From NCBI GenBank assembly GCA_964510065.1, contig CAZEAC010000008.1, positions 9,007 through 73,006 on the forward strand: a stretch of 64,000 nucleotides of DNA, written 5' to 3'. The notes beneath the pieces are model-generated. The model was not told the DNA's origin, did no database searches, and was given only the letters and a program-made list of their open reading frames with translations. Positions within the stretch are counted from its first letter, which is position 1. The number at the start of each line of letters is the position of its first letter. Source of the DNA: an uncultured Bdellovibrionales bacterium (lineage in GTDB: Bacteria; Bdellovibrionota_C; UBA2361; CAIXSY01). The position numbers and the translations under genes were made by a program. Positions 5,784 to 61,273 of the stretch are shown here, one piece after another.

Positions 5784-5784
5784 T

Positions 5785-6783: not shown

Positions 6784-6928
6784 CTTAGAATCTTGCAGTG
6801 CCGTGCCTCAATTGAAAAGCCCCTTCTAGTCGTGTGCGCCACAGACTCGTGGCGCAGGTTCCTCGGGACCGCGACCTCGAACTCATTTTGTCGTCTTTCC
6901 GCGAACGTTCCTTGCGCATATTCTCATA

Positions 6929-10446: not shown

Positions 10447-10530
10447 GCCATGGCACCAATCGATATAGCGGCATTCAGCACTTCGCTATACGTATACTCA
10501 AGCGTAACTTTCAAGCCTACTGTCGACTAA

Positions 10531-10956
10531 TTAATAGAGAGGATAGTAATCTTCTCGAGGCTTTGTCGAGATGTTCCCATTTTTTTCGTAACTTGCGTGA
10601 AGCACCTTCAATAAATACCAATGTATTAAGAAAGCTTTCCTCCAGAGCAAAGACGAGGGCAATGAGCCACGCATGCTTGGCTCATTAGAATAGAGCGATT
10701 TATCATCACTCCGCAGCTCGGCGTGTTTCCAGCCGGCTACTCGCTGACAAAATAATTTTTCTGTTCTTGCGCGCGCGAGTATCCAGGCCACTCCTAGTAC
10801 GCCGTAGAATAAAATGAAGATACAAAAAGAGAAAAATTTTCGAATAATCAATCGACACATGACTATCAGCGCGTGCAAGGACTTCGCGCGACCCAATCGC
10901 CGAAATCTTCGTTCCCATGCCTCTCTACTCAAGCCACTCATCCAGTGCGTTCTCAA
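10531..10956 (-). CDS. small hypothetical protein with one TM segment (possibly spurious)
   Basis: 141-aa ORF on the operon strand between the carbamoyltransferase stop (10979) and the GT4 start. The region is comparatively AT-rich, so it may instead be a non-coding spacer. Confidence 0.25.
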   Translation of the reverse strand: MRTHWMSGLSREAWERRFRRLGRAKSLHALIVMCRLIIRKFFSFCIFILFYGVLGVAWILARARTEKLFCQRVAGWKHAELRSDDKSLYSNEPSMRGSLPSSLLWRKAFLIHWYLLKVLHASYEKNGNISTKPREDYYPLY

Positions 10957-10978
10957 TCAATGTCTAGTTCGATGCGCG

Positions 10979-29711: not shown

Positions 29712-30458
29712 TCAATTGCTCCCACGTTGAGCTACTACTATAAATTCCGGAATGGCAGTAACCGGCTGCGTAGGATCCTTAAGAGATGGAGTCATATAAT
29801 CTATTAGTTCCCCGACACTGTTGAGCAAAAAAGTTGTCGCCCCCCGAAACAATCGTCGAATGCGCGATTGACTTAAGCCGCGATACGCATAGTGCGCCAA
29901 CAGGAAAAATACACCTGAAACTGTCCCTCGTGTCGGAAAAATTTTAATTTCGATGAAGTTTGCGGAGCGGCTAAATTGTAACGGCAACCCGGTCTGCGTC
30001 CAGCGCCAATGATCGTGCGGACTCGGATGCCATGGAAAACACCCATGGGTCGAAAGAATTACTCGCCCTCCTGGACGCAATACTCTATATAGTTCCTTGA
30101 GCACCATATCAGGATTATGAACGTGCTCGAGCACCGAAAAACAGATCACCAAGTCTTGAGATTTATCACGAATCGCGAGCGCTTCCGCGGTACACACTAC
30201 GTCCGTATTCATTCCAGGCGCGCAAATCTCGGTTCCGATGTACCTGCGAGCAAACTTCGCGAGTATCGGATAGAATGGTTTTGAGCCACAGCCGACGTCC
30301 AAGACGTCCAATAAGTTCGACCTATCCGTAATTTCATTTTGCAAAAGGACGCGAAGCGTTCGCACGAAGGCACTCGAACCCAAATAATCGGGGTGAGTTC
30401 GCGAGGGAGCTCGTCGTTCTCTCAATGGCCATGTTACGTCAAGCGCTTCGTCATTCAT
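29712..30458 (-). CDS. class I SAM-dependent methyltransferase, translationally coupled to wzt (candidate chain-terminating methyltransferase)
   Basis: VLDVGCGSKP is motif I and LRPGGRVILS is also present. The start overlaps the wzt stop by 4 bp. Confidence 0.65.
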   Translation of the reverse strand: MNDEALDVTWPLRERRAPSRTHPDYLGSSAFVRTLRVLLQNEITDRSNLLDVLDVGCGSKPFYPILAKFARRYIGTEICAPGMNTDVVCTAEALAIRDKSQDLVICFSVLEHVHNPDMVLKELYRVLRPGGRVILSTHGCFPWHPSPHDHWRWTQTGLPLQFSRSANFIEIKIFPTRGTVSGVFFLLAHYAYRGLSQSRIRRLFRGATTFLLNSVGELIDYMTPSLKDPTQPVTAIPEFIVVAQRGSN

Positions 30459-31696
30459 GCAGTTCTAAAATCAAACTCACACCGATATACACCCGGATAA
30501 TCCACATCGTCGCGCACATCAACTGCTTCGGCGGCACATTGCAGGGTCATCGCCTCTTCAATAAAATCGAGAATCTCACTTCGGTCGATACCAAGATAGA
30601 ATTGAAGTCTGTATAATGAGGGTCTCAAAAGCAGTTTACGCAGACAGATTACATAAGTTCGCGTTTCACCGGCCTTTAGAGACACGGTAACGCCCCGCAT
30701 TCCTGAATTGGCGTCGACTACTCGATTCCAAAAAGCATCGTAAAGCACCAGCGATACGTTAACGTTATCTACATTTTCACGCGCGCGCACCTGAAACGAA
30801 ACTTCAAGCGAATCGCCGGAACGAAACAACTTCGCATTTCCGTCACCGGCTATTCGCAAAGTAGCTTCTTCAAAATACACGCGACCGCTACCGATTCGTT
30901 TTGCCGCGGAAAGATCTTTGTGCCAGGTTGTTTCGCTTAGTGAGGAAGAAAGATAATACTGAATCGCATATTCTATACTATCGTCACACACCACCGCCCC
31001 TTGCTGCAAGACGATTCCACGCGTGCACAGCGATCGCAGCACTCCCAAATTATGGCTTACAAAAATGACCGTTCGACCACCGTGCGCCAGATCATTCATG
31101 TGCCTTAAACACTTCCGTTGAAACTCCGCGTCACCAACCGCGAGCACCTCATCGACAAATATGATCTCAGCTTGTAAGTGCGCGGCAACGGCGAACGCAA
31201 GGCGCACGTACATTCCCGAGGAGTAATGCTTCACCGGAGTATCGATAAAATTGGAAATCCCCGAAAATTCAACAATTTGATCAAACTGCTGAATAATTTC
31301 ATGCCGTTTCATTCCGAGAATAGTTCCACTTAGATATATATTTTCTTTTCCCGTAAGCTCAGGATGAAATCCGGTGCCGACTTCCAACAGGCTCGCGCAG
31401 CGTCCACGCATAATTGCACGACCGGCGGTGGGTTCGGTAATTCGTGACAGTACCTTGAGCAGCGTGCTTTTTCCCGCTCCGTTTGATCCGACCAAACCGA
31501 CTATTTCTCCGGGAAAAATTTCAAAGGAAACATCCTTCAGTGCGTCTATCGTTGCCCGAGGCGCCGCCTGTTCAACTCGGCTCCCTCCCGCCGTCACCAC
31601 CCGCACCAATGAATCTCGCAAAGTACGATAGCGATTATCGTCTATGACATGGCGATACGATTTACAGATATTTTCAACGGAAATGACCGACTCCAC
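30455..31696 (-). CDS. wzt: ABC transporter ATP-binding protein Wzt with C-terminal carbohydrate-binding extension
   Basis: Walker A GSNGAGKST, signature YSSGMYVRLAFA and Walker B IIFVDEVLAVGD are all present. At 413 aa the protein has an extra ~160-aa C-terminal beta-rich domain. Confidence 0.85.
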   Translation of the reverse strand: MESVISVENICKSYRHVIDDNRYRTLRDSLVRVVTAGGSRVEQAAPRATIDALKDVSFEIFPGEIVGLVGSNGAGKSTLLKVLSRITEPTAGRAIMRGRCASLLEVGTGFHPELTGKENIYLSGTILGMKRHEIIQQFDQIVEFSGISNFIDTPVKHYSSGMYVRLAFAVAAHLQAEIIFVDEVLAVGDAEFQRKCLRHMNDLAHGGRTVIFVSHNLGVLRSLCTRGIVLQQGAVVCDDSIEYAIQYYLSSSLSETTWHKDLSAAKRIGSGRVYFEEATLRIAGDGNAKLFRSGDSLEVSFQVRARENVDNVNVSLVLYDAFWNRVVDANSGMRGVTVSLKAGETRTYVICLRKLLLRPSLYRLQFYLGIDRSEILDFIEEAMTLQCAAEAVDVRDDVDYPGVYRCEFDFRTA

Positions 31697-31741
31697 GCGT
31701 TCTCAGTTCCTTTGTTTATTCCTTTTTATGCACCGTATTCG

Positions 31742-32563
31742 CTATGCCAAATCTGCCAAGTGTCTCTCGTTCTGACGAAAATAAGCAATTCCCGCCACGC
31801 ACAGTAGTAGCGAACTCACTCCTGATAGTCCCATCGCAAGGCACGAAGGTTGAGGCATTCCTAAAAGGACCCAACGAGAACTTTCAATGATGGTCACTAG
31901 CGGATTAAGCGCTAAGTAACGTTGAAAGAATCCTGGAAAGAGCGAGCTTGCGTAAAACACAGGCGAGGCAAATAATCCAATTTGTAAAAAAAACGGCACT
32001 ATATGGCGAATGTCTCTATATTGAGCGCTCAATCCCGCGACAAAAGTCGAAATACCGACAGTAGTGAGGAACAACGCACACAACACCAACACAATAAAGA
32101 GCGATCCAACATTAAAGGCAATTCCATAAGACCACGCCATCGCCATAAATAGGACGAATAAAAGTATAAAATCCACGGAACTCGCCAAAATAGCCGCGAG
32201 CGGAATTAGAAGCCGCGGAAAATAAACCTTGGTCATTATTGGCGCATCCGTCACGACTGACTGCATTGCGCCCTGTACCGATGCGGCAAAAAAATTCCAG
32301 ACGATCAACCCAAGCAGCGCAAAGATCGGATACGGCACATTATCTATCCGAAAAGCATCCACTCTACTGAAGGCTGCATTAAGTATGAGAATCATCAGCA
32401 GCGGCTGTACCACGACCCAAGCAATTCCGATAACAGTTTGACGATAGCGAACTTTAAGGTACCGTAAAGTAAGCAGCCATAGAAGATCGCGGAATTCAAA
32501 GAGTTCTCTCAGCCTGAGTGCTTGCCAGCCATTTTTTTTTTCAATAACGATCGGTGTAATCAT
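31742..32563 (-). CDS. wzm: ABC-2 type polysaccharide export permease Wzm
   Basis: 273 aa with 6 TM segments. The N-terminal ...FRDLLWLLTLRYLKVRYRQTVIGIAW is the typical ABC-2 Wzm/KpsM start. It lies immediately upstream of wzt. Confidence 0.8.
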   Translation of the reverse strand: MITPIVIEKKNGWQALRLRELFEFRDLLWLLTLRYLKVRYRQTVIGIAWVVVQPLLMILILNAAFSRVDAFRIDNVPYPIFALLGLIVWNFFAASVQGAMQSVVTDAPIMTKVYFPRLLIPLAAILASSVDFILLFVLFMAMAWSYGIAFNVGSLFIVLVLCALFLTTVGISTFVAGLSAQYRDIRHIVPFFLQIGLFASPVFYASSLFPGFFQRYLALNPLVTIIESSRWVLLGMPQPSCLAMGLSGVSSLLLCVAGIAYFRQNERHLADLA

Positions 32564-37957: not shown

Positions 37958-38713
37958 TTACCTTTTCGCGACAAAGACCATTTGATGACAATGATACGGA
38001 TCAAATCGCTCTGCGATTGGCTGAAGCCATTGGGGAAGCGGATAAAGCCCAAATCCTCGGCCACGCACCTGTGAAAATCCGACTATTCGAAGATAGCTGC
38101 GAAGTGCCTTAAAGCTAAAGACAACCAGATGCCGATGTGCCGGTGTTTCTGATTCAATATCGACTTTTTCCAATGTAGATGGCGATGAAGGCCTCTGCAG
38201 CGAGAGCAACTCTGATGAATCGGGATGAGGCCCGGTCGACGGCATTCGACCAAGCAGTAAATTCGCCACGGTGAAATAGGTGCTAATATTCGGAGTAAGC
38301 AAAATCAGCGTCCCCCCCGGCGCGAGAACTCGATGACATTCCCGGAGAAAGCGGCAACCATTCAGTAAATGCTCCAACACTGAAAACGCGAACACACACC
38401 GGAAGCTTTCGTTGGGATAAGGGAGCGGTTGATTCAGATCTCCTTGTACAACTTGCAAGCCTTTTGCGGCTGCACGCGAGACCTCGCCCGCACTCCACTC
38501 AATGCCGTAGTATTGCCGGCAATCAATAGTTGTCTTTGCGGCTATCTGCCCAAACCATTGCCCTTCGCCTGCCCCGCAGTCAAGGCAGGCCCCCCCGGAT
38601 TTCAGCACCTCACATGCTTGATCGATCGCTGCCTCATACGCTCGGCGCATCGTACTTTGATACAGCTCGCTCAAATAATCCGATAAAAACATATACCTAT
38701 GCAGCAGAGTCAC
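37958..38713 (-). CDS. class I SAM-dependent methyltransferase
   Basis: LDCGAGEGQW is motif I. VLAPGGTLILLTPN is also present. Confidence 0.65.
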   Translation of the reverse strand: MTLLHRYMFLSDYLSELYQSTMRRAYEAAIDQACEVLKSGGACLDCGAGEGQWFGQIAAKTTIDCRQYYGIEWSAGEVSRAAAKGLQVVQGDLNQPLPYPNESFRCVFAFSVLEHLLNGCRFLRECHRVLAPGGTLILLTPNISTYFTVANLLLGRMPSTGPHPDSSELLSLQRPSSPSTLEKVDIESETPAHRHLVVFSFKALRSYLRIVGFSQVRGRGFGLYPLPQWLQPIAERFDPYHCHQMVFVAKR

Positions 38714-39923
38714 TATGTTGGATTACATATATTCGCTTGAGCTCTCGCAACTGCATTACAAGCCAGGCAACTAACAATCCCTGCAACAATAACGAGAAGA
38801 ACTCGCGCTGCCGGAACGGTTGTAGCAATTCCGGAATCGGAATTAGTCCGGGCACACTTCCTACATTTGAGTAGGAAATTAACAGGTAAAAAATAGTGAG
38901 TATCGAGTAAAGCCACGCCATACCCTTGGTTCGCCAAAATACCACCGAAATCACAGGAATCACCAAATATTGATCCGCAAGCGTGGGCGATAATGCCACC
39001 AGAGCAACTGCATAGTAAAAAATTATATCTCGCACGGGCACAACATCTTCTTTCAGCCTTCCAAGGAGCAAGCAAAGACCGATTACCACGGATGCCCACA
39101 GCAGTTTCGCAAGCATCGCGCATGTGCCTCCACCAAGATCCGAAAATAGACCGGCGATAATTGTCCCTAGCAGTCCATCAGGATAGCCGGTGGCATTCAC
39201 GAAGCGAATCGGATCATACTGCACAACGTCATAAATAAATGCCGCTCGTAGCGTTGGGTCGGTCAACCAGGGAAGTAGTCCAATGACGACCAAAGAATAT
39301 GTCACTGTCACGTATAGAAGTCGCCTCTGCAAACTTCCGCACGAGCGCACGCTGAGAATACATAGCGGCCAGAATAAGAAAACGTGCTTTGTAAGTATCG
39401 ACATCGAAAGCAACACAATACTGATGCCATAAAACAAATTTCTTTTACGCGATTGTTTTCGGGTCAGCACAATCCAACTTGCCAGCGCTAGAAATATCGC
39501 CACGTTCTCTATCTGTGAATGGAATCCAGTAATGAGAAATGAAATTGGATGTACCAGGTAGAGCAGTCCGGCGCCGATCCCTAGCAAGCGCCAAAGCACT
39601 ACCGCAATTCCCACATCAGCTAAGGAAAGAAAAGCCGCCCATACTATATGAAATGCCTCACGATTTCCTGGAATCCACTCAAGTCCAAGTTGGTAACACC
39701 AGACCAGCGGCGTCCATAGAAGCGGTCCATATGGCCAGCGTGTAGTCACTGGATACGGATCTTTTCCATCAAGTAGCGTACGAGCAACGAGCGCAAATGA
39801 GTCGATGTCGTAGTTGTGTCCTAACGATGCAAGCCAAATCCGCAGCACTAGTGCCGCGATCGCTACAATGACAAAGACTGCAAGCGAACGAAATGATAAG
39901 GCGCACATTTTATTATCAGTCAT
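38697..39923 (-). CDS. DUF2029/GT87-like membrane glycosyltransferase (GT-C)
   Basis: 408 aa and polytopic. The first loop reads DIDSFALVARTLLDGKDPYPV (D ... PY). It overlaps both neighbours, suggesting operonic coupling. Confidence 0.5.
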   Translation of the reverse strand: MTDNKMCALSFRSLAVFVIVAIAALVLRIWLASLGHNYDIDSFALVARTLLDGKDPYPVTTRWPYGPLLWTPLVWCYQLGLEWIPGNREAFHIVWAAFLSLADVGIAVVLWRLLGIGAGLLYLVHPISFLITGFHSQIENVAIFLALASWIVLTRKQSRKRNLFYGISIVLLSMSILTKHVFLFWPLCILSVRSCGSLQRRLLYVTVTYSLVVIGLLPWLTDPTLRAAFIYDVVQYDPIRFVNATGYPDGLLGTIIAGLFSDLGGGTCAMLAKLLWASVVIGLCLLLGRLKEDVVPVRDIIFYYAVALVALSPTLADQYLVIPVISVVFWRTKGMAWLYSILTIFYLLISYSNVGSVPGLIPIPELLQPFRQREFFSLLLQGLLVAWLVMQLRELKRIYVIQHSDSAA

Positions 39924-41565
39924 GGTAACTCGAAGATATTCCGAGGAGAGTTTTTATGCCTTTTGAAAGCTCCACAATTCCTATCATTGTTGTGACGCAA
40001 ATAAACGGCATGACTAAAATCATCTCTTTATGCCAACGGAAACTAAGAATTGCTTCAGAGAAAACAATAAATCCAAGTATAACTATAGACCCTATGCACG
40101 TCACCCGGGAACTATACATGGGCGATTGTCTTACGCTGCGAACTAGTGACGTCGCAAAGCTCACCAAGAAAAGAAATGAAATGACCATCGTGGGAAGTAC
40201 CTGAGTACCGCTTATGAGCGCCTGGAATATCACAAATCCCGGACGCCAAACCCAGTATTGGTTGGTTGGATTGAAGAACGCACGGGTAGGAGGGCCTTGA
40301 TATGAATAAAAACCGAATCCTTTGGGAACAAACCCCGCGCTAGAATCTACTTGACTTGGAACCATCATTTCTACTGCAAGGCCTCGTGCGGTGACCACAA
40401 CGCCATTAATGATTGATTTTAGGTATCGCCATCGATAATGCCACGCGGCTTCAAGGAACACGCGCACACCCAAGGTATCACCTTCAGCCAGTCCAAGATA
40501 ATAGGTGGTTGGACTAAAGGCTTCAAACCAGGACCATTGAACAGGCGGCAAATTCTCGATCAACTTGTCCAGAACGTCGCTCTCTGCTTTCAAGATATAC
40601 AGATACTTCGCGCGATATCGTTGGATATCGGGCGAGATCCAATTGATATTATTGATACCACCAACATTCTTGTTGTCCCAAGGTAACAACGAATTAAGGA
40701 CCATGAGCCGTTTACCGTTGACTCCGATCTCGGCGAGGTGCCGGTAGTCCTCGTCAGGAAGAATAGATCTCGTTCGGTAAAGCAGTACCCACGCGTGATC
40801 ATAACTAAGCACAGTTGTTCCCGTGGTTATTCGATGCGGCACTACCTTAAACAGCCACACTACTGCAAAGAAGCTCATGACAAAGCACGTTGCATTGGCG
40901 CATCGCATTGTCCGGGAGCGCGGCATGACAATAATTATTCCAATTGGAACAAGTACGAAATAGAGCACATTGAATTTACAAAGATAGGAAAGCGCGAATA
41001 GTGCTCCTGACAATGAGAAGCAGACGAGTGCTTTTTTATCTGATTTCAAATTCACGCCGTACCAACATAGGCACACGCACAGAATAAGAAATGTTACTTG
41101 CATCCATTCAGGATAAAATAAGGACGTCAAGCCTAGAATTCCCCAATGAAATCCAAAAAGGAGAATGGCACCATCAGCGACGATACGGCCATATATCGCC
41201 CTTAGTACGTGGCAAAACGGGATCAGCGCAAGCACGACGAGCGTATGCTGAATTGCAATGAGAAAATATAGACGTGCATGTGGAAAGTGCTTACCTACCG
41301 AATCGAGTCCTAAAAGCCCAAACAGTCCCATGACAAAGGGGTATCCTCCAGCATGAACTAGGTTGGAATGGTGATTAATTATCATGTCAAGATAATTGCC
41401 TGCATCAAAAGCAGTATTGGGTCCGAAAGTGATTACAAATAGCGCATGAATAGCGGCAACATACCAAATTACCGCTGGAACCATACGAATCACCGCGCCG
41501 ATAGAACGAGGCGCAGTACAATCAACTAACTCAGTCGGGTGTGGCGCTATCACTCTTTTTACCAA
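39916..41565 (-). CDS. large polytopic membrane protein with central periplasmic domain (GT-C-like, uncharacterised)
   Basis: 549 aa with TM bundles at both ends and a hydrophilic segment of about 200 aa in the middle. No family motif recognised. The start is uncertain; an alternative Met lies at 41484. Confidence 0.5.
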   Translation of the reverse strand: MVKRVIAPHPTELVDCTAPRSIGAVIRMVPAVIWYVAAIHALFVITFGPNTAFDAGNYLDMIINHHSNLVHAGGYPFVMGLFGLLGLDSVGKHFPHARLYFLIAIQHTLVVLALIPFCHVLRAIYGRIVADGAILLFGFHWGILGLTSLFYPEWMQVTFLILCVCLCWYGVNLKSDKKALVCFSLSGALFALSYLCKFNVLYFVLVPIGIIIVMPRSRTMRCANATCFVMSFFAVVWLFKVVPHRITTGTTVLSYDHAWVLLYRTRSILPDEDYRHLAEIGVNGKRLMVLNSLLPWDNKNVGGINNINWISPDIQRYRAKYLYILKAESDVLDKLIENLPPVQWSWFEAFSPTTYYLGLAEGDTLGVRVFLEAAWHYRWRYLKSIINGVVVTARGLAVEMMVPSQVDSSAGFVPKGFGFYSYQGPPTRAFFNPTNQYWVWRPGFVIFQALISGTQVLPTMVISFLFLVSFATSLVRSVRQSPMYSSRVTCIGSIVILGFIVFSEAILSFRWHKEMILVMPFICVTTMIGIVELSKGIKTLLGISSSYHD

Positions 41566-42196
41566 TTACTAAAAACTGCCGTCCGAAGAAGGGCCATACA
41601 AACGGCATCGCTAGATACAGTCGAGTGAGCAACGATGACGCCGGCAATCGCCCGCGAAAAGAGAATGGCAAAAACTTTCTGATTGTTCGTTCAATGCTAT
41701 ATCCGGCGGCGTAGAGATGTTCGCCAATCGAGACATCTGTCAAAACAAGCCGGTGATCCGCACAATCGAAGTACTCTCGGGAACAGTACTTAAAATTGGG
41801 TCCCATGATCGCGATACGTCCTTGCGGCTTGAGGCAACGATACATTTTTTGCAAAAGCGCGCTAATCTCTTCGGGCGAATGCAAATGTTCGAGAAAATTC
41901 GAAATATAAATTAAATCAAAACGTGCATCAGGCAAATCAAGCTCTAGTGTGTTGCCTTTTAGAAAATGAACTTTTGAATCCATGTGCGCCGGCTCCCGCA
42001 AATCGACTCCCCATTTATCAGGACTGGGCATGGCTTTGATAAATTCCATGTCGCCACATGCGGGATCAAGCACCGAGTGTGGAGCACCCATGCTGCGATA
42101 AAACCACCGCGCAATCTCTCCCCACACGACTTCCTTTGAGGCGCGGCTTACACCGGCAAATCGATATTCATAAATACGGTCGTAGTTCACCGACAT
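41531..42196 (-). CDS. class I SAM-dependent methyltransferase
   Basis: VLDPACGDMEF is motif I. LKPQGRIAIMGPN is also present. It overlaps the upstream GT2 stop. Confidence 0.6.
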   Translation of the reverse strand: MSVNYDRIYEYRFAGVSRASKEVVWGEIARWFYRSMGAPHSVLDPACGDMEFIKAMPSPDKWGVDLREPAHMDSKVHFLKGNTLELDLPDARFDLIYISNFLEHLHSPEEISALLQKMYRCLKPQGRIAIMGPNFKYCSREYFDCADHRLVLTDVSIGEHLYAAGYSIERTIRKFLPFSFRGRLPASSLLTRLYLAMPFVWPFFGRQFLVIGKKSDSATPD

Positions 42197-42894
42197 TTCC
42201 TATAGAGTGCGTACCAATACCAATAAAGATAACGCGGGAGCCATTTCATCAAACGAAAGCGCGATTGGCCCGCCGTGCGATCGCGCCAACAGGTCGCGAC
42301 TTCCGAAATCTTATAACCTTGGAAATGTCCTTTAATCACCAATTCCATTCCGAGTTCAAAACCGCCTTTGCTCTCAATTACAATCGCATCAAGCACCCGT
42401 CGCCGATACAGCTTAAAATTATTGGTAATATCATGCGTGGGTATCCGTATTAGATGGTACAAACTCACACCCGCGAGACGCGAAAGTGTGCGCTTTATCA
42501 GCGGTCCTCCGATTTGTCGCCCTCCGCTCATGTAGCGTGAAGCACATACAATATCAGATCCCTCACGCGCCTTTTGCATCATCGCATTAATTACCGAGGG
42601 AGGATCGGAAAGATCGGCCATCGTTACCACCACATATTCCGCAGTGGTCTCCTCAAAGCCAGTTTTCATCGCATTCAGCACACCACGGCCGTATTTATTG
42701 CGAAGATAACGAATTGGAAGTCCGAGACGCGTCTGCGCTTTTCTCGCGGGTACAAGAGTTGAATCTTCCTCAAAATCATAGACTAGACAAATCTCATAAT
42801 CCTGCCCTACTTGCTTCGAAATCTCCTCGAGAGCCTCAGTAATATTTTCACCCTCGTTGTAGACAGGAAGCACAAGCGACAGCTGCGCGGACAC
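42187..42894 (-). CDS. GT2 polyprenyl-phosphate sugar synthase (DPM1/GtrB-like, soluble form)
   Basis: LSLVLPVYNEGENI...DYEICLVYDFEEDST...VVVTMADLSDPP matches the DPM1-like GT2 blocks. It is 235 aa with no TM tail. Confidence 0.7.
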   Translation of the reverse strand: MSAQLSLVLPVYNEGENITEALEEISKQVGQDYEICLVYDFEEDSTLVPARKAQTRLGLPIRYLRNKYGRGVLNAMKTGFEETTAEYVVVTMADLSDPPSVINAMMQKAREGSDIVCASRYMSGGRQIGGPLIKRTLSRLAGVSLYHLIRIPTHDITNNFKLYRRRVLDAIVIESKGGFELGMELVIKGHFQGYKISEVATCWRDRTAGQSRFRLMKWLPRYLYWYWYALYRKCR

Positions 42895-42897
42895 GTG

Positions 42898-43917
42898 TTA
42901 AATTCCTCCAATTTTCACCTGGTGCTCAATCCAGGGCACCACTTCATCGAGGATCGTATTTAGATCAGTATTTGCCTCATACCCTAGAAGCGATCGCGCC
43001 TTCTCCACATCAGGCACACGTTTCTGGACATCATATTGAAACGGCTCGTCAAAAACGTAATGAAACGGCTTCGATGGATTGAGCCGCTTCCAGATACGCT
43101 CCGCGAGCTCAAGCACGGTCGTTGACGTGGCCGTCGAAATGTTAAAATCATTGTTGATTGCCCGCTCATGTTCTATGCAAAGACGGATGCCACGGGCCAG
43201 ATCACCCGCATAGGTATAGTGACGAATCTGGCCTCCGTTCCCCAAGATGCGCAAAGGATCCTGCCCTTTGAGAACCTTCTGAACAAGATCAGGAACTACA
43301 TGACTCATCGCCAACTTGACGTTTCCCGAAAGAATTTCACGGTCGGAAAGCGCCCGTTTTTCGCCGGTGCCTACACAATTGAACGGTCGAATAATTGTAA
43401 AAGGCAACTTATATTGCTCGTAGGCGCCCTTTGCAAAATATTCGCACGCAAGCTTCTGAAATCCATAGGTACTCCGCGGCGGCGGACTGGTGAACTGCGC
43501 CCCCTCTTTCGAGGGAAATTCGCGCACTGACTCGTACACCATACTCGAGCTCAATATATTAATCTTCTTCAGAGCACGATTTTTAAAAGCCCACAATGCC
43601 GCGTCAAAAGTTGAGGCGGTAATCCTTTCATTCTCCGCAAGTAAGTCGTACGCGAACTCATGAAAGTAGGAGATCCCTCCAATCATCGCGGCAGCTGCCA
43701 CTACTTGATCACAATCGCCGATCAGCTCGCGCATTAATTTTTGATCTTTCGCATCGCCCTCGACGAAATGGTAATTGGCGTGCTGATCGTACGATTTCTG
43801 TACTTTGCCGTACTTAGAAAAATTATCTATTCCAACAACGGTATGACCGTACCTAAGAAGTTCGTCAACAAGATAGCCGCAAATGAATCCCGCCGAGCCG
43901 GTCACGAGAATCTTCAT
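42898..43917 (-). CDS. NAD-dependent epimerase/dehydratase, UDP-glucuronate 4-epimerase-like
   Basis: MKILVTGSAGFICGYL...VVGIDNFS matches the family N-terminus. The start ATG overlaps the stop of the upstream dehydrogenase (ATGA). Confidence 0.7.
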   Translation of the reverse strand: MKILVTGSAGFICGYLVDELLRYGHTVVGIDNFSKYGKVQKSYDQHANYHFVEGDAKDQKLMRELIGDCDQVVAAAAMIGGISYFHEFAYDLLAENERITASTFDAALWAFKNRALKKINILSSSMVYESVREFPSKEGAQFTSPPPRSTYGFQKLACEYFAKGAYEQYKLPFTIIRPFNCVGTGEKRALSDREILSGNVKLAMSHVVPDLVQKVLKGQDPLRILGNGGQIRHYTYAGDLARGIRLCIEHERAINNDFNISTATSTTVLELAERIWKRLNPSKPFHYVFDEPFQYDVQKRVPDVEKARSLLGYEANTDLNTILDEVVPWIEHQVKIGGI

Positions 43918-45104
43918 GCGACGTTCCGATCCCAAATTCCCCAACAATCGACGTAAGGTTTATCAACCTTAATCGTACGATATTCACGATGAGGCTGCGC
44001 CAAAATTACCCCGTCGGATCGAGCAATTGCCTCTTGTGCCGACGGAAGCTCCGCGAAGTAGCAATCGCAGGTAATAACATGCGCCAGTTTCATTTCTAAT
44101 ATCTTCTTTATCTTGAATGATAAACTATCACGACAGTCATCATTATCAGCTTTAAAAGTCATACCAAGAATTGCAACTGTCTTACCCTCTAAAGAGTTAA
44201 GCTGCTTCTCCAATTGCTCAACTAAGAATACCGGCAAGCCCTCGTTTATCAGCATTGCGGACTGTCCCAAAGAAAAATTACTTTTATAAAATGCCGCAAG
44301 TTGCATCGTGTCTTTGAGTAAGCAGGGTCCGGCGGTAAGACCCGGCTGAGTATAATGAGCAGCACGCGGATACTCGTCACGCAAAGCATTATAAATTTTG
44401 TAAAAATCGAGCCCCAATGACTCGACCATCATATAAAACTGATTTGCAATCGCGAATTCAAGATAACGCCAAGAGTTGGTGATAAGTTTGGCAACTTCTG
44501 CTTCCACAGGATTCAAGATGACAGTCTTTGGGGCGATGGTACGAAATAGGGCAACTGCTTGCTTCTCGGCTTCGGGTGACGTCGCTGACACAAGCTGTGG
44601 AAGTTTGAATATCTCATCAATCCCTTTTCCTTGCACAATTCGTTCCGGACAGAACGCGAGGAGACTTTGTGAAAATTTCTTATGAAGCAGTTTATCAAGA
44701 ATCTGGACAATACTTGGATAGACCGTACTTCGCATCACCAGCAGCATGTCTTCGTGCATCAGTGGAAGGTACTGCTCGACAACATCAACAACGTCATGAA
44801 TCCGTGGATTAAAATGTTCATCGATCGGCGTGCCAGTTACAAAACATAGCACATCACAGTGCGCGGCAAGTTTCTTATCGGTACTTGCAATCAGATTTTT
44901 TTCTCGCACCTCTCGCAAAATAACTTCAGCCCCTTCCTCGAGAAACGGCGGCTCTCCGCGATTAATTTTCTCCACGGCTTCCACATTGATGTCGATCAGT
45001 ACTACCGAGTGACCTACCGAAGCAAAGGCAAGGCCGAGTGGAAATCCAACATGGCCGCATCCCCCTATAATCGCAATTTTTCTAAAGCCGTTCTTGGTGC
45101 TCAT
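43914..45104 (-). CDS. UDP-sugar 6-dehydrogenase (Ugd/WecC family nucleotide-sugar dehydrogenase)
   Basis: KIAIIGGCGHVGFPLGLAFA is the N-terminal Rossmann motif. At 396 aa the length fits the family. Confidence 0.75.
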   Translation of the reverse strand: MSTKNGFRKIAIIGGCGHVGFPLGLAFASVGHSVVLIDINVEAVEKINRGEPPFLEEGAEVILREVREKNLIASTDKKLAAHCDVLCFVTGTPIDEHFNPRIHDVVDVVEQYLPLMHEDMLLVMRSTVYPSIVQILDKLLHKKFSQSLLAFCPERIVQGKGIDEIFKLPQLVSATSPEAEKQAVALFRTIAPKTVILNPVEAEVAKLITNSWRYLEFAIANQFYMMVESLGLDFYKIYNALRDEYPRAAHYTQPGLTAGPCLLKDTMQLAAFYKSNFSLGQSAMLINEGLPVFLVEQLEKQLNSLEGKTVAILGMTFKADNDDCRDSLSFKIKKILEMKLAHVITCDCYFAELPSAQEAIARSDGVILAQPHREYRTIKVDKPYVDCWGIWDRNVA

Positions 45105-45299
45105 TTTCTATCTGTCGCAGTGATGTAATCATCCCAGAAAAATACCAGCAGTTCAATGATTTAAGATTTAACGCATGGACGATTTTCAAGCTGTTGCCTG
45201 CCCACGCGCAATGCGACAAGCTAGAACTTCGGGTAACTATTCGTACGGAATGTATCACATGTTCTCATTTTTCAACTACATGACCGCGGCGAGAAAGTA

Positions 45300-55134: not shown

Positions 55135-56079
55135 ATGGCGCACAACACTACGGAAACAATTTGGTGTATTTCACCGGTATACTTTGACTTCAAGTCATTT
55201 TCACGCCTTCGCTCGACTATTCAGTCGGTGCTTCGCGAATCGCATCCTCATTCAACTGTAAAGTTCATCATTGTCGACGATTCCGCCGGCAATGATCACG
55301 AACTCGGAGAAATGAGCAATAAGCCCGACATCGTGATGGTCGTGCCGCCGTACAATCTTGGACATCAACGTGCGCTCGTCTTCGGAATTCGCAAGACGAA
55401 ACATCTCTTTGCCGAAAACGACGTGATTATAACTCTTGATGCCGATGGCGAAGATCGCCCGGAAGATCTGCCAAGCCTTTTGCAGGCATTGCCGCCTTCC
55501 TCCGCTTCGGAAGCCAAAAACTCGATCGTACTCGCACGGCGTACATCGCGAAAAACATCCTATTTCTTTAAAATTCTGTACTTCTTCTTTCAAATTTTCT
55601 TTCGATTATTAACCGGCATTGTAGTGCGCACCGGAAACATGGCCTGTTATCGCGCGCAAGCAATCATGCTTGCTATTGGCCATCCTTTCTTTGATCAATG
55701 CTACTCTTCAACACTCATCGCACTTCGTTTTCGAAGGATATTCGTTCCATGTCCACGCGGCCGACGCTACTTTGGGTCCTCGAAAATGAACTTCTGGAGT
55801 CTGCTTGTGCACGGACACAGAATGCTCATGCCATTTATTGATCGCATAGCGATTCGGCTGCTGTTTTTCATTGCCGCGTTGTTCCTTGCCACACTCGTGC
55901 TGCTCGGTACCGGACTTGTTGCCGCGCTCTTTTTCAACCAGGCAACTTTGGGCGCATTCTCTTGGATTGCATTGGGATTGTCAGGACTTTGCATGGTACT
56001 GCTCGTCAACTTCTTGGTACTCTTTACTGTGGTTGCTCAATCACAGGCTATTTCGTTGCGGGGCATTGAAGAAAAGTGA
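55135..56079 (+). CDS. GtrB-like GT2 polyprenyl-phosphate glycosyltransferase with C-terminal TM hairpin
   Basis: FIIVDDSAGND...ITLDADGEDRPEDL are the GT2 DxD blocks. The C-terminal ~100 aa contains 2 hydrophobic helices, as in GtrB/ArnC. Confidence 0.75.
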   Translation: MAHNTTETIWCISPVYFDFKSFSRLRSTIQSVLRESHPHSTVKFIIVDDSAGNDHELGEMSNKPDIVMVVPPYNLGHQRALVFGIRKTKHLFAENDVIITLDADGEDRPEDLPSLLQALPPSSASEAKNSIVLARRTSRKTSYFFKILYFFFQIFFRLLTGIVVRTGNMACYRAQAIMLAIGHPFFDQCYSSTLIALRFRRIFVPCPRGRRYFGSSKMNFWSLLVHGHRMLMPFIDRIAIRLLFFIAALFLATLVLLGTGLVAALFFNQATLGAFSWIALGLSGLCMVLLVNFLVLFTVVAQSQAISLRGIEEK

Positions 56080-56792
56080 ACACGCCGAACGACCGCTATC
56101 AGGGAAAAGAGCTCGATCTTTTCGAACAGGCCGTACGCTGGAAGCGCTACTTCGGTGCGAAGATCGCTCCGCATCTCCGTGGATCGGTCTTGGAGGTTGG
56201 AGCCGGTCAAGGTGGAACAACTGTCGCGCTCGCACCGCTTGTGTCTACTTCATGGACCTGCCTCGAGCCCGACGAGCAGCTACTTGCCTGCATCGAAAAA
56301 AAGATAAACACCGGAATACTTCCTGGTCATTGCACATTGGTTCAGGGCACGATCAATTCAATGTCCGCGTCGGATCAATTTGGTTCGATCTTGTACATTG
56401 ATGTGCTCGAGCACATAGGTGACGATCGCGCTGAACTTTCAAATGCCGCGAGCCACCTCGAAAAAGGCGGCAGAATCGTGGTTCTTTCTCCCGCGTTCAA
56501 CCTTTTGTTTTCACCTTTTGATAAAGCCGTGGGGCACCATCGCCGCTACACCAAGAAATCACTTGAAGCGGCGATCCCTTCGAACTTTACATGCATTACC
56601 ACATGTTATCTCGATAGCGTTGGCGCGGCGTTATCGCTTAGCAACCGGATCCTCCTTCGTCAGCGCACGCCAAGCACTCAGCAAATCCACTTTTGGGACA
56701 ATATAGTCGTCCCCTGCTCGATGATTATCGATCGCGTACTCGGTCATAGCTTCGGTCGATCCATTCTCGGAATTTGGGAAAAAAATGCCTAA
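56076..56792 (+). CDS. class I SAM-dependent methyltransferase
   Basis: VLEVGAGQGGTT is motif I. LEKGGRIVVLSP is also present. The GTG start overlaps the GtrB-like stop (GTGA). Confidence 0.65.
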   Translation: MNTPNDRYQGKELDLFEQAVRWKRYFGAKIAPHLRGSVLEVGAGQGGTTVALAPLVSTSWTCLEPDEQLLACIEKKINTGILPGHCTLVQGTINSMSASDQFGSILYIDVLEHIGDDRAELSNAASHLEKGGRIVVLSPAFNLLFSPFDKAVGHHRRYTKKSLEAAIPSNFTCITTCYLDSVGAALSLSNRILLRQRTPSTQQIHFWDNIVVPCSMIIDRVLGHSFGRSILGIWEKNA

Positions 56793-58068
56793 GAGCGACT
56801 TCCCCTCAAAGACATCCGACGCTAATAAACGACTGAGCGGCAAAAAATTGATCCTGGCCACACTTGCGGGAATCATTGGCATAATGATCGGCAGTTGGTT
56901 ATTATCGAATACTCCGCTCTACGCTCATCAAGGCACACGAATTCAAATTTTTGATTTTGCCTACTACGTTTCGATGATCTCGTTGTTTTGGAGCCGCCCA
57001 AGTGTCGACATATATTCGTTCAGCGACAATCAGCTGATGTTGCAGCAGCTCTTTGATTTTGTTCCCGCGACTGTCATGCCTTTCGGTATAAGTCCCTCAA
57101 GTGTTTTGATCTTGGCGCCCTGGGCTGGTCTTGCCCGCTGGAGCCTTGATTTCAGCTTTCTCATGTGGCTTGGACTATCTTGTGCGGCACTCGCGACAGC
57201 AATTCTCATTGTGATAGACACCTGGCCGCGGCAATTTCTTCGCGATATTCCGGCGATCACACTTCTCGTGGTGGTCCTTGCTTCAGACTCCTTTTTAGGA
57301 GCTCTGCTTCGAGGGCAAACCTCCGCTCTTGCCCTCGCGGGACTTCTCTATCTTACCTATTCTTGCTTCAGCGGGGGCACAAAGCCAAGCGGCTGGATTC
57401 GCGACGCGGGTATACTTGCCTTGCTCTCGATAAAGCTGCCCTATTTTATCATAGCGAGTCTCACTCTGCTCATCTTTCGACGCCATAGAGCCGCCCTTAC
57501 CGGCACTGCCATCGCTGCATGCGCAGTAGCGTTCGCCCTCGCGCTATCGCCCCCCGGAACATTTCGGCATTTTATCGGGACACTCAGCCTCTTCTCAAGT
57601 CAACAGATTCCACCGCACTATGCAGGCGCTTTCTCTTTCTCGGAGATTAGCACTTTAGCAACCGCGCTCCCCGACTCACTTTCACGCGCGCTTCGAGCCA
57701 CCCTTTCGCTTGTCCTGGCCGCAGTCTGTTTGGGCGCGGTAGTGATTCGAAAGTTCAAAGCTACACCAATCGGGCCGAGCGAAATAATTTTGATCGTTGG
57801 CAGTTATTTGCTTTTCTCGCCGTACGTCGGGGCCTATGAGGACATTTTACTTCTTCTACCGGCGCTTTTCATTTTTCGTGAACGCGATCGTACGTGGAAT
57901 ATCAAAGTAATCGTGACATTGATTCTCAGTGCGATCTATTTAAATCGCGGCATATTAGATCTCGGCACGCTCCAGTGGACCATGTGCCCGGTCAAATTCG
58001 CGATATTTGCCTGTCTCTTGCTTGTCGCGCGCGGCACTTCACGAGCCTCCGTGACCAGGCTAGCGTAA
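56785..58068 (+). CDS. DUF2029/GT87-family membrane glycosyltransferase (GT-C)
   Basis: 427 aa. The first loop reads FDFAYYVSMISLFWSRPSVDIY. The central block ...SGGTKPSGWIRDAGILALLSIKLPYFI is shared with the paralogs. Confidence 0.55.
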   Translation: MPKSDFPSKTSDANKRLSGKKLILATLAGIIGIMIGSWLLSNTPLYAHQGTRIQIFDFAYYVSMISLFWSRPSVDIYSFSDNQLMLQQLFDFVPATVMPFGISPSSVLILAPWAGLARWSLDFSFLMWLGLSCAALATAILIVIDTWPRQFLRDIPAITLLVVVLASDSFLGALLRGQTSALALAGLLYLTYSCFSGGTKPSGWIRDAGILALLSIKLPYFIIASLTLLIFRRHRAALTGTAIAACAVAFALALSPPGTFRHFIGTLSLFSSQQIPPHYAGAFSFSEISTLATALPDSLSRALRATLSLVLAAVCLGAVVIRKFKATPIGPSEIILIVGSYLLFSPYVGAYEDILLLLPALFIFRERDRTWNIKVIVTLILSAIYLNRGILDLGTLQWTMCPVKFAIFACLLLVARGTSRASVTRLA

Positions 58069-59151: not shown

Positions 59152-60348
59152 TTAAAAGAATCCACACAATACCGTGCTCCCTTGAACCTGATCACAGCGT
59201 AACGCAAAGACATACAGCGCTTGAAGACCAATTGATATGAGCGCGGCAACGCACAACGCAGCCCGTAAAACTTTACGAGGACGCGCCAACGCACTCGCGC
59301 GAAAAAGTATTGGAGCCATCAACGTTAAGCTCTCCAGTGGATAGCGGTAATTGAAGGCGAGTCCGCCCGATACCTGTCCCATCCGTACGTGCACAATCAG
59401 ATATACAATTGCCCCGACAAAGAGGCTCTTTTCAAACAATTCTGAACCTTTCCAAGCGCCAGGTAGGGTTACCATTAGCACCAAGAGCATCGGCGACCAG
59501 ATAAAAAGTCCGTTACTACCGATCAGCGCGTCCGTGAATCGGGAGAAATTACTCACGACCGGCGTCGAAAGGAGATGCTCCTTAAAAACAGGAGAATAGC
59601 CGCCCGTGACACTTGGAGCGCTAAATACCAGATCATTATAGAGCACGAGTCCAATGACACCGATTGAGATACCGAGAATCCAAGGTCCAAATACTTTCAA
59701 TTTTCCGGACATTGCGAAAAATGGAAACATAAAAAAAATCGCCGCAACCGCCAGCGGCGCGCGCGCCATAATTGCAAAGCCAAGGGCGAGCCCCGATAAA
59801 AACATTCGTTCATGAAAAAACGCCAGCATTGCAAGCGCGAGCATGAGCTGCGTCACCGAATGCGGCCAGAGCTGATTAGCAGATATCGCCCAGGTTGCCG
59901 TGCCGAATGCAAACGCCAAAGCAGCAATCATGGCATCAGCAGCGGAGCCGAAACGGCAAAGTATCAGATACACTAAAAGCACTGCGAAAAGCGCGCACAC
60001 CACCGCGCATATAGTGCCGGGCCCGGGAGTAAAGCTCGCGGTACTCGAAAAAAAATAAAACGGTACCGCCAAAAGAAAAGTTCCAAGCGGTCGATTGCTC
60101 ACCGGGCCGATCTTACTCTCCACAATCCAGGGGTTACCGCGAAACTCAGGCACCGCGACAGTTCCACGCTTGGCAATACTCCATGCCGCGAGCGCGCTCG
60201 CTTCCGCATCAACATTAATCTCAGGTCCGTAATTCGCGCTCAGCGCATAAATCGCACCCACAATAATGGCGAGCACGATTCCGTAGCGAACCTTCCCGCG
60301 AAAAGGAGATGCCTGTGAATTAGCGTCGGTCACGGGACTCAAGTTCAA
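59152..60348 (-). CDS. polytopic membrane protein, GT87/DUF2029-related GT-C candidate
   Basis: 398 aa with about 10 TM segments. It contains the block ERMFLSGLALGFAIMARAPLAVAAIFFMFPFF similar to the paralog family. The 5' end overlaps the upstream GT2 gene by 29 bp, so the start is uncertain. Confidence 0.5.
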   Translation of the reverse strand: MNLSPVTDANSQASPFRGKVRYGIVLAIIVGAIYALSANYGPEINVDAEASALAAWSIAKRGTVAVPEFRGNPWIVESKIGPVSNRPLGTFLLAVPFYFFSSTASFTPGPGTICAVVCALFAVLLVYLILCRFGSAADAMIAALAFAFGTATWAISANQLWPHSVTQLMLALAMLAFFHERMFLSGLALGFAIMARAPLAVAAIFFMFPFFAMSGKLKVFGPWILGISIGVIGLVLYNDLVFSAPSVTGGYSPVFKEHLLSTPVVSNFSRFTDALIGSNGLFIWSPMLLVLMVTLPGAWKGSELFEKSLFVGAIVYLIVHVRMGQVSGGLAFNYRYPLESLTLMAPILFRASALARPRKVLRAALCVAALISIGLQALYVFALRCDQVQGSTVLCGFF

Positions 60349-61273
60349 GTCTCTTTATTCGCGCGAGTGCGTCTTCCAAAAGCCGGCGATTAAATTGAAT
60401 AATGTCGGCGACAAGACCAATAAGTATCAACATGACGCCAGCGAGAAGGAATACCGCGGCGAAGATCAGCGATTGAATCTTCCCCTGACTGTTCGCAAAA
60501 AAGAAAAAATACGCAAAGCGCCCCGCCAATGCGCCACCGACCAATATTGAAAGTACACCCGCTTCGATAAAAAGCCTCAGCGGATTATACATCGTAAACA
60601 CTCGAATAATCGTCGCCATGGAGAAAATGATATAGGTCCTGATGCTGCTCATCAGTCTGGAGTTGCGGGTACTCTTATTCGTGCGGATCCGTACATCCCG
60701 AATCACAAGCCCCTTTGCTCGAGCCTGGAGAATTACCTCGTGTGTGTAGGTAAAATTACTGAGTATGGTGAGGCGAAGCGCGGCCTCGCGCGAAAACGCA
60801 CGAAAGCCGCTGGCTGCGTCTCGCACCGTCGTAGAGGAAAGTTTTCGCACCACCGCGCTGCCGAGCCACTGCAAAAACTTTTTGACGGCGGAAAATTCCT
60901 CGATATTGTTCGTGCCACGATCGCCCACGACGATATCTGCCTCCCCTTTCAGGATAGGTGCGATCAACTTCTCAATTTCACTTCCCGGATATTGATTATC
61001 GCCATCCATGTTGACGATGATATCGGCTCCGCGCGCAAGGGCTGCGTCGATGCCGGTACGAAAGGCGAAAGCCAGGCCGAGGTTTCCAGTATGGCGAACA
61101 ACTTCGTGTACACCGTTTTTCTTGGCGACCTCAATTGTTCGATCGGTCGAGCCATCGTCAACGATAAGTGTCTCGATGCTGTCGATCCCTGGAATACTTC
61201 GAGGTATCCCAGCAAGGGTATCAGGAAGGGTGTGTTCCTCGTTGTAACATGGGATCTGTATGACAAGTCTCAT
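60320..61273 (-). CDS. ArnC/GtrB/DPM1-like GT2 polyprenyl-phosphate glycosyltransferase with C-terminal TM segments
   Basis: RLVIQIPCYNEE...LIVDDGSTDRT...IVNMDGDNQYP matches the GT2 blocks. The C-terminus holds two hydrophobic helices. Confidence 0.75.
   Translation of the reverse strand: MRLVIQIPCYNEEHTLPDTLAGIPRSIPGIDSIETLIVDDGSTDRTIEVAKKNGVHEVVRHTGNLGLAFAFRTGIDAALARGADIIVNMDGDNQYPGSEIEKLIAPILKGEADIVVGDRGTNNIEEFSAVKKFLQWLGSAVVRKLSSTTVRDAASGFRAFSREAALRLTILSNFTYTHEVILQARAKGLVIRDVRIRTNKSTRNSRLMSSIRTYIIFSMATIIRVFTMYNPLRLFIEAGVLSILVGGALAGRFAYFFFFANSQGKIQSLIFAAVFLLAGVMLILIGLVADIIQFNRRLLEDALARIKRLELESRDRR

Follow-up and report, generated by a model that had tools for sequence, protein, structure and literature searches.

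How might a methylated sugar be placed on a glycan outside the cytoplasm, in a compartment without S-adenosylmethionine (SAM)? The question is raised by an operon in a 64-kb window of DNA (64,000 nucleotides, the whole stretch analysed) from an uncultured Bdellovibrionales bacterium. The operon occupies 37958-45104 and is probably a self-contained extracytoplasmic glycosylation unit, in which a lipid-linked sugar donor is methylated in the cytoplasm before it is flipped across the membrane. It is one tightly coupled transcription unit of seven genes. In order of transcription these encode a nucleotide-sugar 6-dehydrogenase (UGD_g), an epimerase-type short-chain dehydrogenase/reductase (SDR_f), a glycosyltransferase of family 2 (GT2_e), a putative methyltransferase (MT_d), two membrane proteins with multiple transmembrane (TM) segments (TM_c and TM_b) and a second putative methyltransferase (MT_a). 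A first-pass annotation, made from the letters alone, had described five minus-strand open reading frames (ORFs) within 37958-42894; all five are found at its coordinates, and the Pfam classes of the glycosyltransferase and the two methyltransferases agree. Its core logic is partly supported, several details being wrong or loose. The single coupled operon that it described is right in tightness and too short in extent: two genes upstream of GT2_e, UGD_g and SDR_f, were missed, and these bear on the identity of the sugar.

Overlapping starts and stops had been claimed for all junctions of the five genes. The claim holds for two of them: the reading frames of GT2_e and MT_d share 10 nt (ATGTCGGTGA), and those of TM_c and TM_b share 8 nt (ATGACTGA). 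The MT_d/TM_c and TM_b/MT_a junctions are overlaps or gaps of a few to about 46 nt, depending on the true start codon. SDR_f and GT2_e are separated by 3 nt, with a GGAGGA motif before the GT2_e start. The dehydrogenase stop overlaps the likely SDR_f start as ATGA; the true start of SDR_f is probably the ATG near 43917. The operon is bounded upstream by a 195-bp divergent intergenic region (45105-45299), the sole gap of more than 150 bp nearby, and downstream by the end of a convergent gene at 37949. Scans for consensus promoters and terminators across the operon gave matches at chance level.

GT2_e is a protein of 235 amino acids (aa) that matches Pfam Glycos_transf_2 (9.7e-27). Its top NCBIfam models are PgfS (1.3e-18), ArnC (6.8e-16) and the haloarchaeal dolichyl-phosphate (Dol-P)-hexose transferase (5.6e-13), all of them scoring far under the equivalog cutoffs. 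The nearest solved relative is the Dol-P-mannose synthase of Pyrococcus furiosus (PfDPMS; 5mlz, E 3.9e-25, query residues 2-222). The next structural matches are ArnC (1.4e-13) and sll0501/GtrB (1.3e-12). The alignment spans PfDPMS residues 22-239, the acceptor-side region included, and the SRY..GG loop is kept. The C-terminus is aromatic-rich and conserved (WLPRYLYWYWYALY). A polymer-type GT2 of the window, at 23557, served as a control and matches TuaG, EpsE and WcaA instead. By these matches GT2_e is assigned to the polyprenyl-phosphate class of GT2 enzymes (DPMS/GtrB/ArnC/PpgS), as the first-pass annotation had proposed, and not to the polymer-building GT2s.

The methyltransferase is tied to this synthase in other genomes. 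A metagenome profile scan with the GT2_e subfamily gave 80 loci, with the GT2 ORF located in 78. An MT_d-type methyltransferase directly adjoins the GT2 on the same strand in 20 of the 78 (20 of 134 neighbour slots); among 268 non-adjacent ORFs there are only 2 of this type (binomial p ~1e-16, relatedness of the loci not corrected for). Adjacent same-strand pairs of GT2 and methyltransferase number 22, and ten overlap by 4 nt, eight of these with MT_d. Both gene orders occur, GT2 then MT_d being found in 13 of 20 pairs. Single-polypeptide fusions, confirmed with Pfam, are present in three loci, as GT2::MT in L010 and L070 and as MT_d::GT2 in L058. MT_d-type genes lie next to the GT2 or are fused with it over a GC range of 34-63%. 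This adjacency in unrelated genomes, together with the three fusions, supports the specific functional link of GT2 and methyltransferase that was claimed earlier from the window alone. The comparative signal is strong.

The nearest loci, whose contigs have a GC content of 34-53%, keep the order dehydrogenase-SDR-(MT_d)-GT2-multi-TM, with identities of 70-78% for the SDR, 54-59% for the GT2, 43-59% for the dehydrogenase and 30-35% for MT_d; three of them (L048, L049, L053) have the order dehydrogenase-SDR-MT_d-GT2. The multi-TM partner is not conserved there, and only 2 of 10 tested match PMT_2. More widely, a multi-TM protein (at least 330 aa and at least 6 TM segments) lies no more than two genes from the GT2 in 28 of 66 loci. 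Across lineages the donor-making genes are conserved and the GT-C partner varies. In one further locus (L005), a fusion of a TM_c-type protein with an SDR is followed by GT2_e-, SDR- and MT_d-like genes.

MT_d, MT_a and MT_56076 (the methyltransferase of a second module at 55135-58068, see below) match Pfam Methyltransf_11/23/25 and are on this ground assigned to the class-I SAM methyltransferases. The match to Methyltransf_11 is 9.5e-11 for MT_d and 1.1e-17 for MT_a; MT_a has the canonical motif LDCGAGEG, and motif I of MT_56076 is LEVGAGQGG. The MT_d family is characterized by a motif I consensus of DLGCGYGEF, an acidic β2 residue, a conserved YWDFxDH and a hydrophobic, aromatic C-terminus, the last of which suggests membrane association. 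Neither a signal peptide nor a TM segment is found in MT_d or MT_a. PDB and NCBIfam matches of the methyltransferases are generic and indicate no substrate. MT_a is not conserved with the module elsewhere, save for weak MT_a-like neighbours in two loci (L034, L040) and the methyltransferase domain of the L010 fusion. A methyltransferase standing in for a flippase was considered and rejected, the fold being of the soluble class-I type without TM segments.

TM_c (549 aa) and TM_b (408 aa) both have a multi-TM core with a GT-C fold. GT-C enzymes carry a catalytic acid just after the first TM helix. TM_c has an invariant D54 in an N-x-x-x-D directly after TM1; TM_b has an invariant D39 in GHNYD after TM1, plus D103. 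An acidic residue in the first extracytoplasmic loop is present in both families, with the topology taken from the models. The fold and the aspartate after TM1 bear out the earlier designation of the two as GT-C membrane proteins. Neither protein matches a Pfam or NCBIfam model, single-sequence PDB searches with them are empty, and neither belongs to a curated GT-C family (GT87, PMT_2 and the like). Of the relatives, 3 of 40 match GT87 and 1 of 40 matches PMT_2; P0007 also carries PMT_2. The two belong to membrane-protein families that have no annotation, with about 650 members in one and seven known in the other. The TM_b model was built from four sequences: a family-profile search gave four proteins, and a word-indexed search only TM_b itself. 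Comparison of the window's twelve multi-TM proteins by profile hidden Markov model (HMM) and phmmer found no recent paralogy with TM_b or TM_c.

Contexts elsewhere mark TM_c as the natural partner of the donor predicted for GT2_e and MT_d. TM_b may be usable with either of two donors, because elsewhere it travels with the GT2/methyltransferase pair of the second module. A genome profile scan with the TM_b family gave 36 loci, spread over many phyla. Four of them, three in Opitutales and one in Bryobacteraceae, have a homolog of the GT2 at 55135 (E ~1e-25 to 1e-29), a homolog of MT_56076 (E ~1e-60) and then a TM_b homolog. In Opitutales these form a stand-alone three-gene cassette amid apparent housekeeping genes; its GT2 has TM helices, and the cassette likewise encodes no flippase. 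The density of methyltransferase genes is about four times higher within 2.5 kb of TM_b homologs than farther off.

The sugar is approached through the two upstream genes. UGD_g exceeds the cutoff of the NDP-sugar dehydrogenase model TIGR03026 (249 bits, cutoff 189.8) and carries all three UDPG_MGDP_dh Pfam domains. Its nearest solved structures are enzymes of the UDP-N-acetylmannosamine (UDP-ManNAc) dehydrogenase type (4r16, 7e-39; Cap5O, 7e-34); its homologs upstream of the GT2 in related loci are 41-59% identical. SDR_f matches Pfam Epimerase (3e-41). Its PDB matches are a mixture of 4-epimerases and UDP-glucuronic acid decarboxylases and do not choose between them. Its motifs are SSSMVYE and YGFQK, without Asp/Glu after Ser/Thr. 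It is read as likely an epimerase rather than a decarboxylase, because its S-Y-K signature lacks the acidic residue found in dehydratases and decarboxylases; the motif reading alone favours this choice. Homologs of SDR_f in loci L048-L055 and L071, on contigs with a GC content of 34-53%, are 70-78% identical, the adjoining methyltransferase only 30-35%; the constraint on SDR_f is unusually strong for a sugar-nucleotide enzyme. The sugar is most likely an epimer of a UDP-(N-acetyl)hexuronic acid, because UGD_g is nearest to dehydrogenases of UDP-ManNAc/N-acetylhexosamine (HexNAc) and SDR_f has an epimerase signature.

The following pathway is proposed. From a UDP-hexose or UDP-HexNAc the dehydrogenase would form the uronic acid, which SDR_f would epimerise, the enzyme classes resting on the matches above and the substrates being predictions. 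GT2_e, of polyprenyl-phosphate class and TM-less, would load the sugar onto undecaprenyl or another polyprenyl phosphate on the cytoplasmic side of the membrane. MT_d would methylate the sugar while it is cytoplasmic, most likely as the lipid-linked intermediate, and MT_a may add a second methyl group or act at another position. A flippase encoded outside the window would move the donor across the membrane. The two GT-C enzymes, assigned by fold, would then put the methylated sugar on one or two sites of a glycan acceptor, probably the glycan exported by the neighbouring Wzm/Wzt. Methylation would have to precede flipping, because MT_d and MT_a carry neither signal peptide nor TM segment, SAM occurs in the cytoplasm, and GT-C enzymes transfer the sugar outside it. 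O-methylation after transfer, which the first-pass annotation had offered as one option, is implausible for these reasons. If methylation precedes flipping, its substrate is either the lipid-linked sugar, which is preferred, or the nucleotide sugar. On present evidence the methyltransferases show no sign of being tRNA or protein methyltransferases, nor GT2_e of being a soluble transferase acting on the glycan directly, the two outcomes named at the outset as contrary to the proposal.

Several observations weigh against donor methylation and transfer as set out here. At the DXD position GT2_e has M-A-D (TMADLSDPP) where PfDPMS has DAD; the second Asp is retained, and the Met is common to the L001 and L005 homologs. 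Hydropathy gives GT2_e no TM segment. Motif I of the window's MT_d is DPACGDMEF; this copy may bind SAM weakly, because two of the three motif glycines are gone. The structure model of TM_b is of low confidence (pLDDT 54.8), hhalign aligns the TM_b family significantly with neither the window GT87 nor the TM_c family, and the TM_b profile has no significant match among PDB sequences. About half of the nearest loci (L051, L052, L054, L055) have no methyltransferase between SDR and GT2; methylation therefore appears not to be intrinsic to the pathway, and the methyltransferase is read as an optional tailoring component. Recurrence of the module within the window carries little weight by itself, because methyltransferases account for 8 of the window's roughly 55 genes and are scattered along it; the association goes beyond chance because the module is conserved in other genomes. 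Synthase and GT-C are present and the flippase is absent from the window. A flippase for the three lipid-linked donors of the window is not encoded locally, because no small multi-TM ORF (GtrA-, SMR- or ArnE/F-like) clear of larger genes occurs window-wide; the unannotated window membrane proteins have no MATE or Wzx family match.

The methyltransferase could act earlier, on the nucleotide sugar, with the GT2 then loading a sugar already methylated. The order dehydrogenase-SDR-MT_d-GT2 of L048, L049 and L053 is that of such a linear pathway, and the GT2/methyltransferase fusions are compatible with substrate hand-over in either direction. This alternative is nevertheless considered unlikely: sugar O-methylation usually follows glycosyl transfer, there are well-attested cases in which a lipid-linked donor is tailored (ArnD), the hydrophobic aromatic C-terminus of the MT_d family speaks against a nucleotide-sugar substrate, and the order with GT2 before MT_d is the commoner one. 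The epimerase acting on undecaprenyl-phosphate-linked ribofuranose (undP-Ribf) is a further attested case of donor tailoring (PMC11127046).

GT2_e might not be a polyprenyl-phosphate synthase and might instead glycosylate another acceptor, namely a diacylglycerol or hopanoid lipid, a small molecule or a polymer, with the methyltransferase tailoring the product and the membrane proteins otherwise employed. The lack of TM helices, MAD in place of DAD, the NCBIfam scores and the absence of a flippase gene from the window would all fit. TM-less synthases of the polyprenyl-phosphate kind do exist, for example human DPM1 and mycobacterial PpgS; moreover DPMS, ArnC and GtrB are the best relatives of GT2_e by a wide margin with the acceptor-side region matched, multi-TM proteins are frequent near the GT2, and the operon's two have GT-C folds, GT-C enzymes being users of lipid-phosphate-linked donors. 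A different acceptor is on this balance very unlikely. Just as unlikely is the idea that the methyltransferases are general tailoring enzymes of a cytoplasmic polymer, or that MT_d is a non-catalytic partner of methyltransferase fold that activates or anchors a TM-less GT2. Small partner proteins do likewise for some undecaprenyl-phosphate-sugar synthases, the eight methyltransferase genes are scattered through the window, the glycine loop of the window's MT_d is degenerate (DPACGDME) and GT2_e has no membrane anchor of its own. Against this stand the dedicated methyltransferase subfamily adjacent or fused to the GT2 over a wide range of GC content, the canonical SAM motif and candidate catalytic residues kept by the MT_d family overall, and the Opitutales cassette, whose GT2 has its own TM helices and yet retains the methyltransferase.

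The first-pass annotation had regarded the operon as the first copy of a module that recurs at 55135-58068. A GT2, a methyltransferase and a GT87 protein are indeed found there; the designation as a copy is wrong, the two modules not being paralogous. Their proteins resemble each other only in the common fold of the methyltransferases (22% identity, E 7e-4), and the second module is taken as an independent, analogous instance of the same design. Duplication as the origin of the recurrence was rejected, the modules having no similarity beyond fold and TM_b and TM_c no recent paralog in the window. A third GT2 with a membrane protein lies at 59152-61273 (Table 1). This GT2 matches NCBIfam AglJ (1.7e-31) and PpgS (8.4e-22) and has C-terminal TM helices; the 7-TM protein beside it has no Pfam match. 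The polyprenyl-phosphate-type GT2s of the window, at 42187, 55135 and 60320, are each directly followed by one or two multi-TM proteins, with a methyltransferase between in two cases.

The donor methylation and GT-C transfer proposed for the operon resemble several known systems in part. Lipid-linked monosaccharide donors for extracytoplasmic glycosylation are a general bacterial route to surface-glycan diversity, and this general principle is already established. Systems described so far combine synthase, flippase and GT-C enzyme; epimerases that tailor the donor are a recent addition. The Gtr system (GtrB undecaprenyl-phosphate-glucose synthase, GtrA flippase and serotype-specific GtrC) and the pentofuranose systems of Citrobacter youngae have in common with the scheme proposed for the operon that polyprenyl phosphate is charged by a GT-A enzyme and that transfer, by a GT-C enzyme, is extracytoplasmic. 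Further common points are conserved donor genes beside a variable GT-C, an ABC-transporter-dependent glycan locus as the setting, and an auxiliary enzyme of the cytoplasm that can modify the lipid-linked donor. In C. youngae this enzyme is the SDR epimerase ORF13, which acts on undP-Ribf (PMC11127046). The operon differs in having no GtrA, SMR or MATE flippase gene, a TM-less GT2, an integral and sometimes fused SAM methyltransferase, two GT-C genes and a dedicated dehydrogenase and SDR.

In the Rgt (RgtE; RgtA-D/F) and Arn (Ugd, ArnA, ArnC, ArnT) systems, as proposed for the operon, a dehydrogenase and an SDR supply an ArnC-like GT2 with a sugar derived from a uronic acid, which GT-C enzymes install on an envelope glycoconjugate. 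In Arn the donor is chemically tailored both before and after lipid loading. For Rhizobium, RgtE is given as a bactoprenyl-phosphate galacturonic acid transferase and RgtD/F as GT-C galacturonic acid transferases (PMC7663294). Unlike these systems the operon has no aminotransferase, formyltransferase or deformylase, its tailoring is methylation, and its matches are far under equivalog cutoffs. The Agl pathway of Haloferax volcanii has a dehydrogenase (AglM), Dol-P-charging GT2s (AglJ/AglD), a SAM methyltransferase (AglP) and an extracellular Dol-P-mannose mannosyltransferase (AglS) (PMC3871713); the NCBIfam models of AglJ, AglM and Dol-P-hexose transferase turn up as weak matches. As the methyltransferase of a Dol-P-based pathway, AglP is a precedent for tailoring of a lipid-linked donor ahead of export. 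The pathway differs in being archaeal protein N-glycosylation; the likeness is one of pathway composition, not of orthology. The substrate of AglP is a Dol-P-oligosaccharide, and AglP is not known to act on a monosaccharide donor.

Mycobacterial capping with methylthioxylose (MTX) had been offered as an analogy. The methylthio group of MTX comes from methionine-salvage metabolites and is not known to come from a cluster-encoded methyltransferase, so that the analogy fails as to the methyl source. It stands for the GT2 and GT-C logic: a GT2 (Rv0539/MtxS) makes a polyprenyl-phosphate donor of a methyl-bearing sugar, and a GT-C (Rv0541c/MtxT) transfers it; the comparison is by this logic and not by sequence. 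Production of the MTX lipid donor is assigned to Rv0539/mtxS (PMC12088412). A methyltransferase as a component of such systems was not found described in the full-text literature searched, the coverage of which is incomplete. If the proposed pathway is right, methylation joins the reactions possible on a lipid-linked donor, and methylated side-chain sugars installed in a compartment without SAM are explained. The natural fusions (L010, L058, L070) are direct handles for biochemistry, and two membrane-protein families without annotation gain a fold and a likely role from the analysis. A wider generalization is conceivable and rather unlikely: that methyltransferase-coupled DPMS-like synthases, fusions included, form a widespread undescribed class that supplies methylated polyprenyl-phosphate donors to unannotated GT-C enzymes without a recognisable flippase, and that in the uronic-acid branch the methyl group is perhaps an ester neutralising the carboxylate for membrane crossing. 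In function such an ester would parallel the N-formylation of the Arn pathway.

Table 1. Operon, further modules and exporter genes in the 64-kb window
Feature	Positions	Strand	Basis or remark
UGD_g, nucleotide-sugar 6-dehydrogenase	43914-45104	-	First operon gene; TIGR03026 and Pfam
SDR_f, extended SDR, epimerase-type	42898-43947	-	Pfam Epimerase
GT2_e, DPMS/ArnC/GtrB-like, predicted polyprenyl-phosphate sugar synthase	42187-42894	-	Pfam Glycos_transf_2
MT_d, putative class-I SAM methyltransferase, conserved GT2 partner	41531-42196	-	Methyltransf_11
TM_c, GT-C-fold putative membrane glycosyltransferase, rare family	39916-41565	-	Fold
TM_b, GT-C-fold putative membrane glycosyltransferase, GT87/ALG3-like	38697-39923	-	Fold
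MT_a, second putative class-I SAM methyltransferase	37958-38713	-	Last operon gene; Methyltransf_11
Divergent intergenic region, presumed operon promoter region	45105-45299	.	Position
Second module, ArnC-like GT2 with C-terminal TM helices	55135-56079	+	Pfam, NCBIfam
Second module, methyltransferase MT_56076	56076-56792	+	Pfam
Second module, GT87 GT-C	56785-58068	+	Pfam
Third pair, AglJ/PpgS-like GT2 and 7-TM protein	60320-61273 (GT2); 59152-60348 (7-TM)	-	29-nt overlap; no methyltransferase
Wzt (with Wzt_C domain) and Wzm, ABC exporter	30455-32563	-	ABC_tran and Wzt_C, ABC2_membrane

The window as a whole forms one glycan locus. The glycan carried by Wzm/Wzt is the likely acceptor of the module. 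The window also contains GT4 and GT2 polymer-building enzymes, FnlABC-like genes, several GDSL proteins, two carbamoyltransferases and two AsnB-like amidotransferases. About twelve GT-C-like multi-TM genes lie between 4230 and 61273, unusually dense and mutually very divergent; four match Pfam GT87, one has a weak PMT match and the others are unannotated.

Some features of individual loci are recorded separately. The TM_c-type fusion of L005 (P0006, 1797-4562, 921 aa) is a GT-C protein of the TM_c family naturally joined to a C-terminal SDR epimerase/dehydratase domain. One locus (L058, 63% GC) has both module types of the window: an MT_d::GT2 fusion at 4904-6430, with a multi-TM protein of 797 aa after it, and, 3.5 kb on, at 10006-11701, a gene like the GT2 at 55135 with an MT_56076-like gene (45% identity). 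Marine metagenomes (L081-L087, L104, L106, L117) share a cluster around the GT2_e and MT_d homologs. Its members are a GT2 like that at 60320, a GFO/IDH/MocA oxidoreductase, a TM protein of about 620 aa, the GT2_e-type gene, MT_d, a TM protein of about 340 aa and a GT11-like gene; this composition suggests that a different sugar feeds the same GT2-methyltransferase pair. In two Opitutales loci (L017 at 5699-6785, L022 at 6827-7543) the three-gene cassette is seemingly interrupted or partly replaced by insertion-sequence-like genes, the housekeeping-like flanks being unchanged. Eight window proteins (37958-63346) were found by exact look-up in a collection of 15 billion proteins, each as a singleton cluster. 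At the edge of the glycan locus, 142-1473 on the minus strand, a HipA-like toxin kinase is encoded (HipA_C 7e-51, Couple_hipA 1.2e-24).

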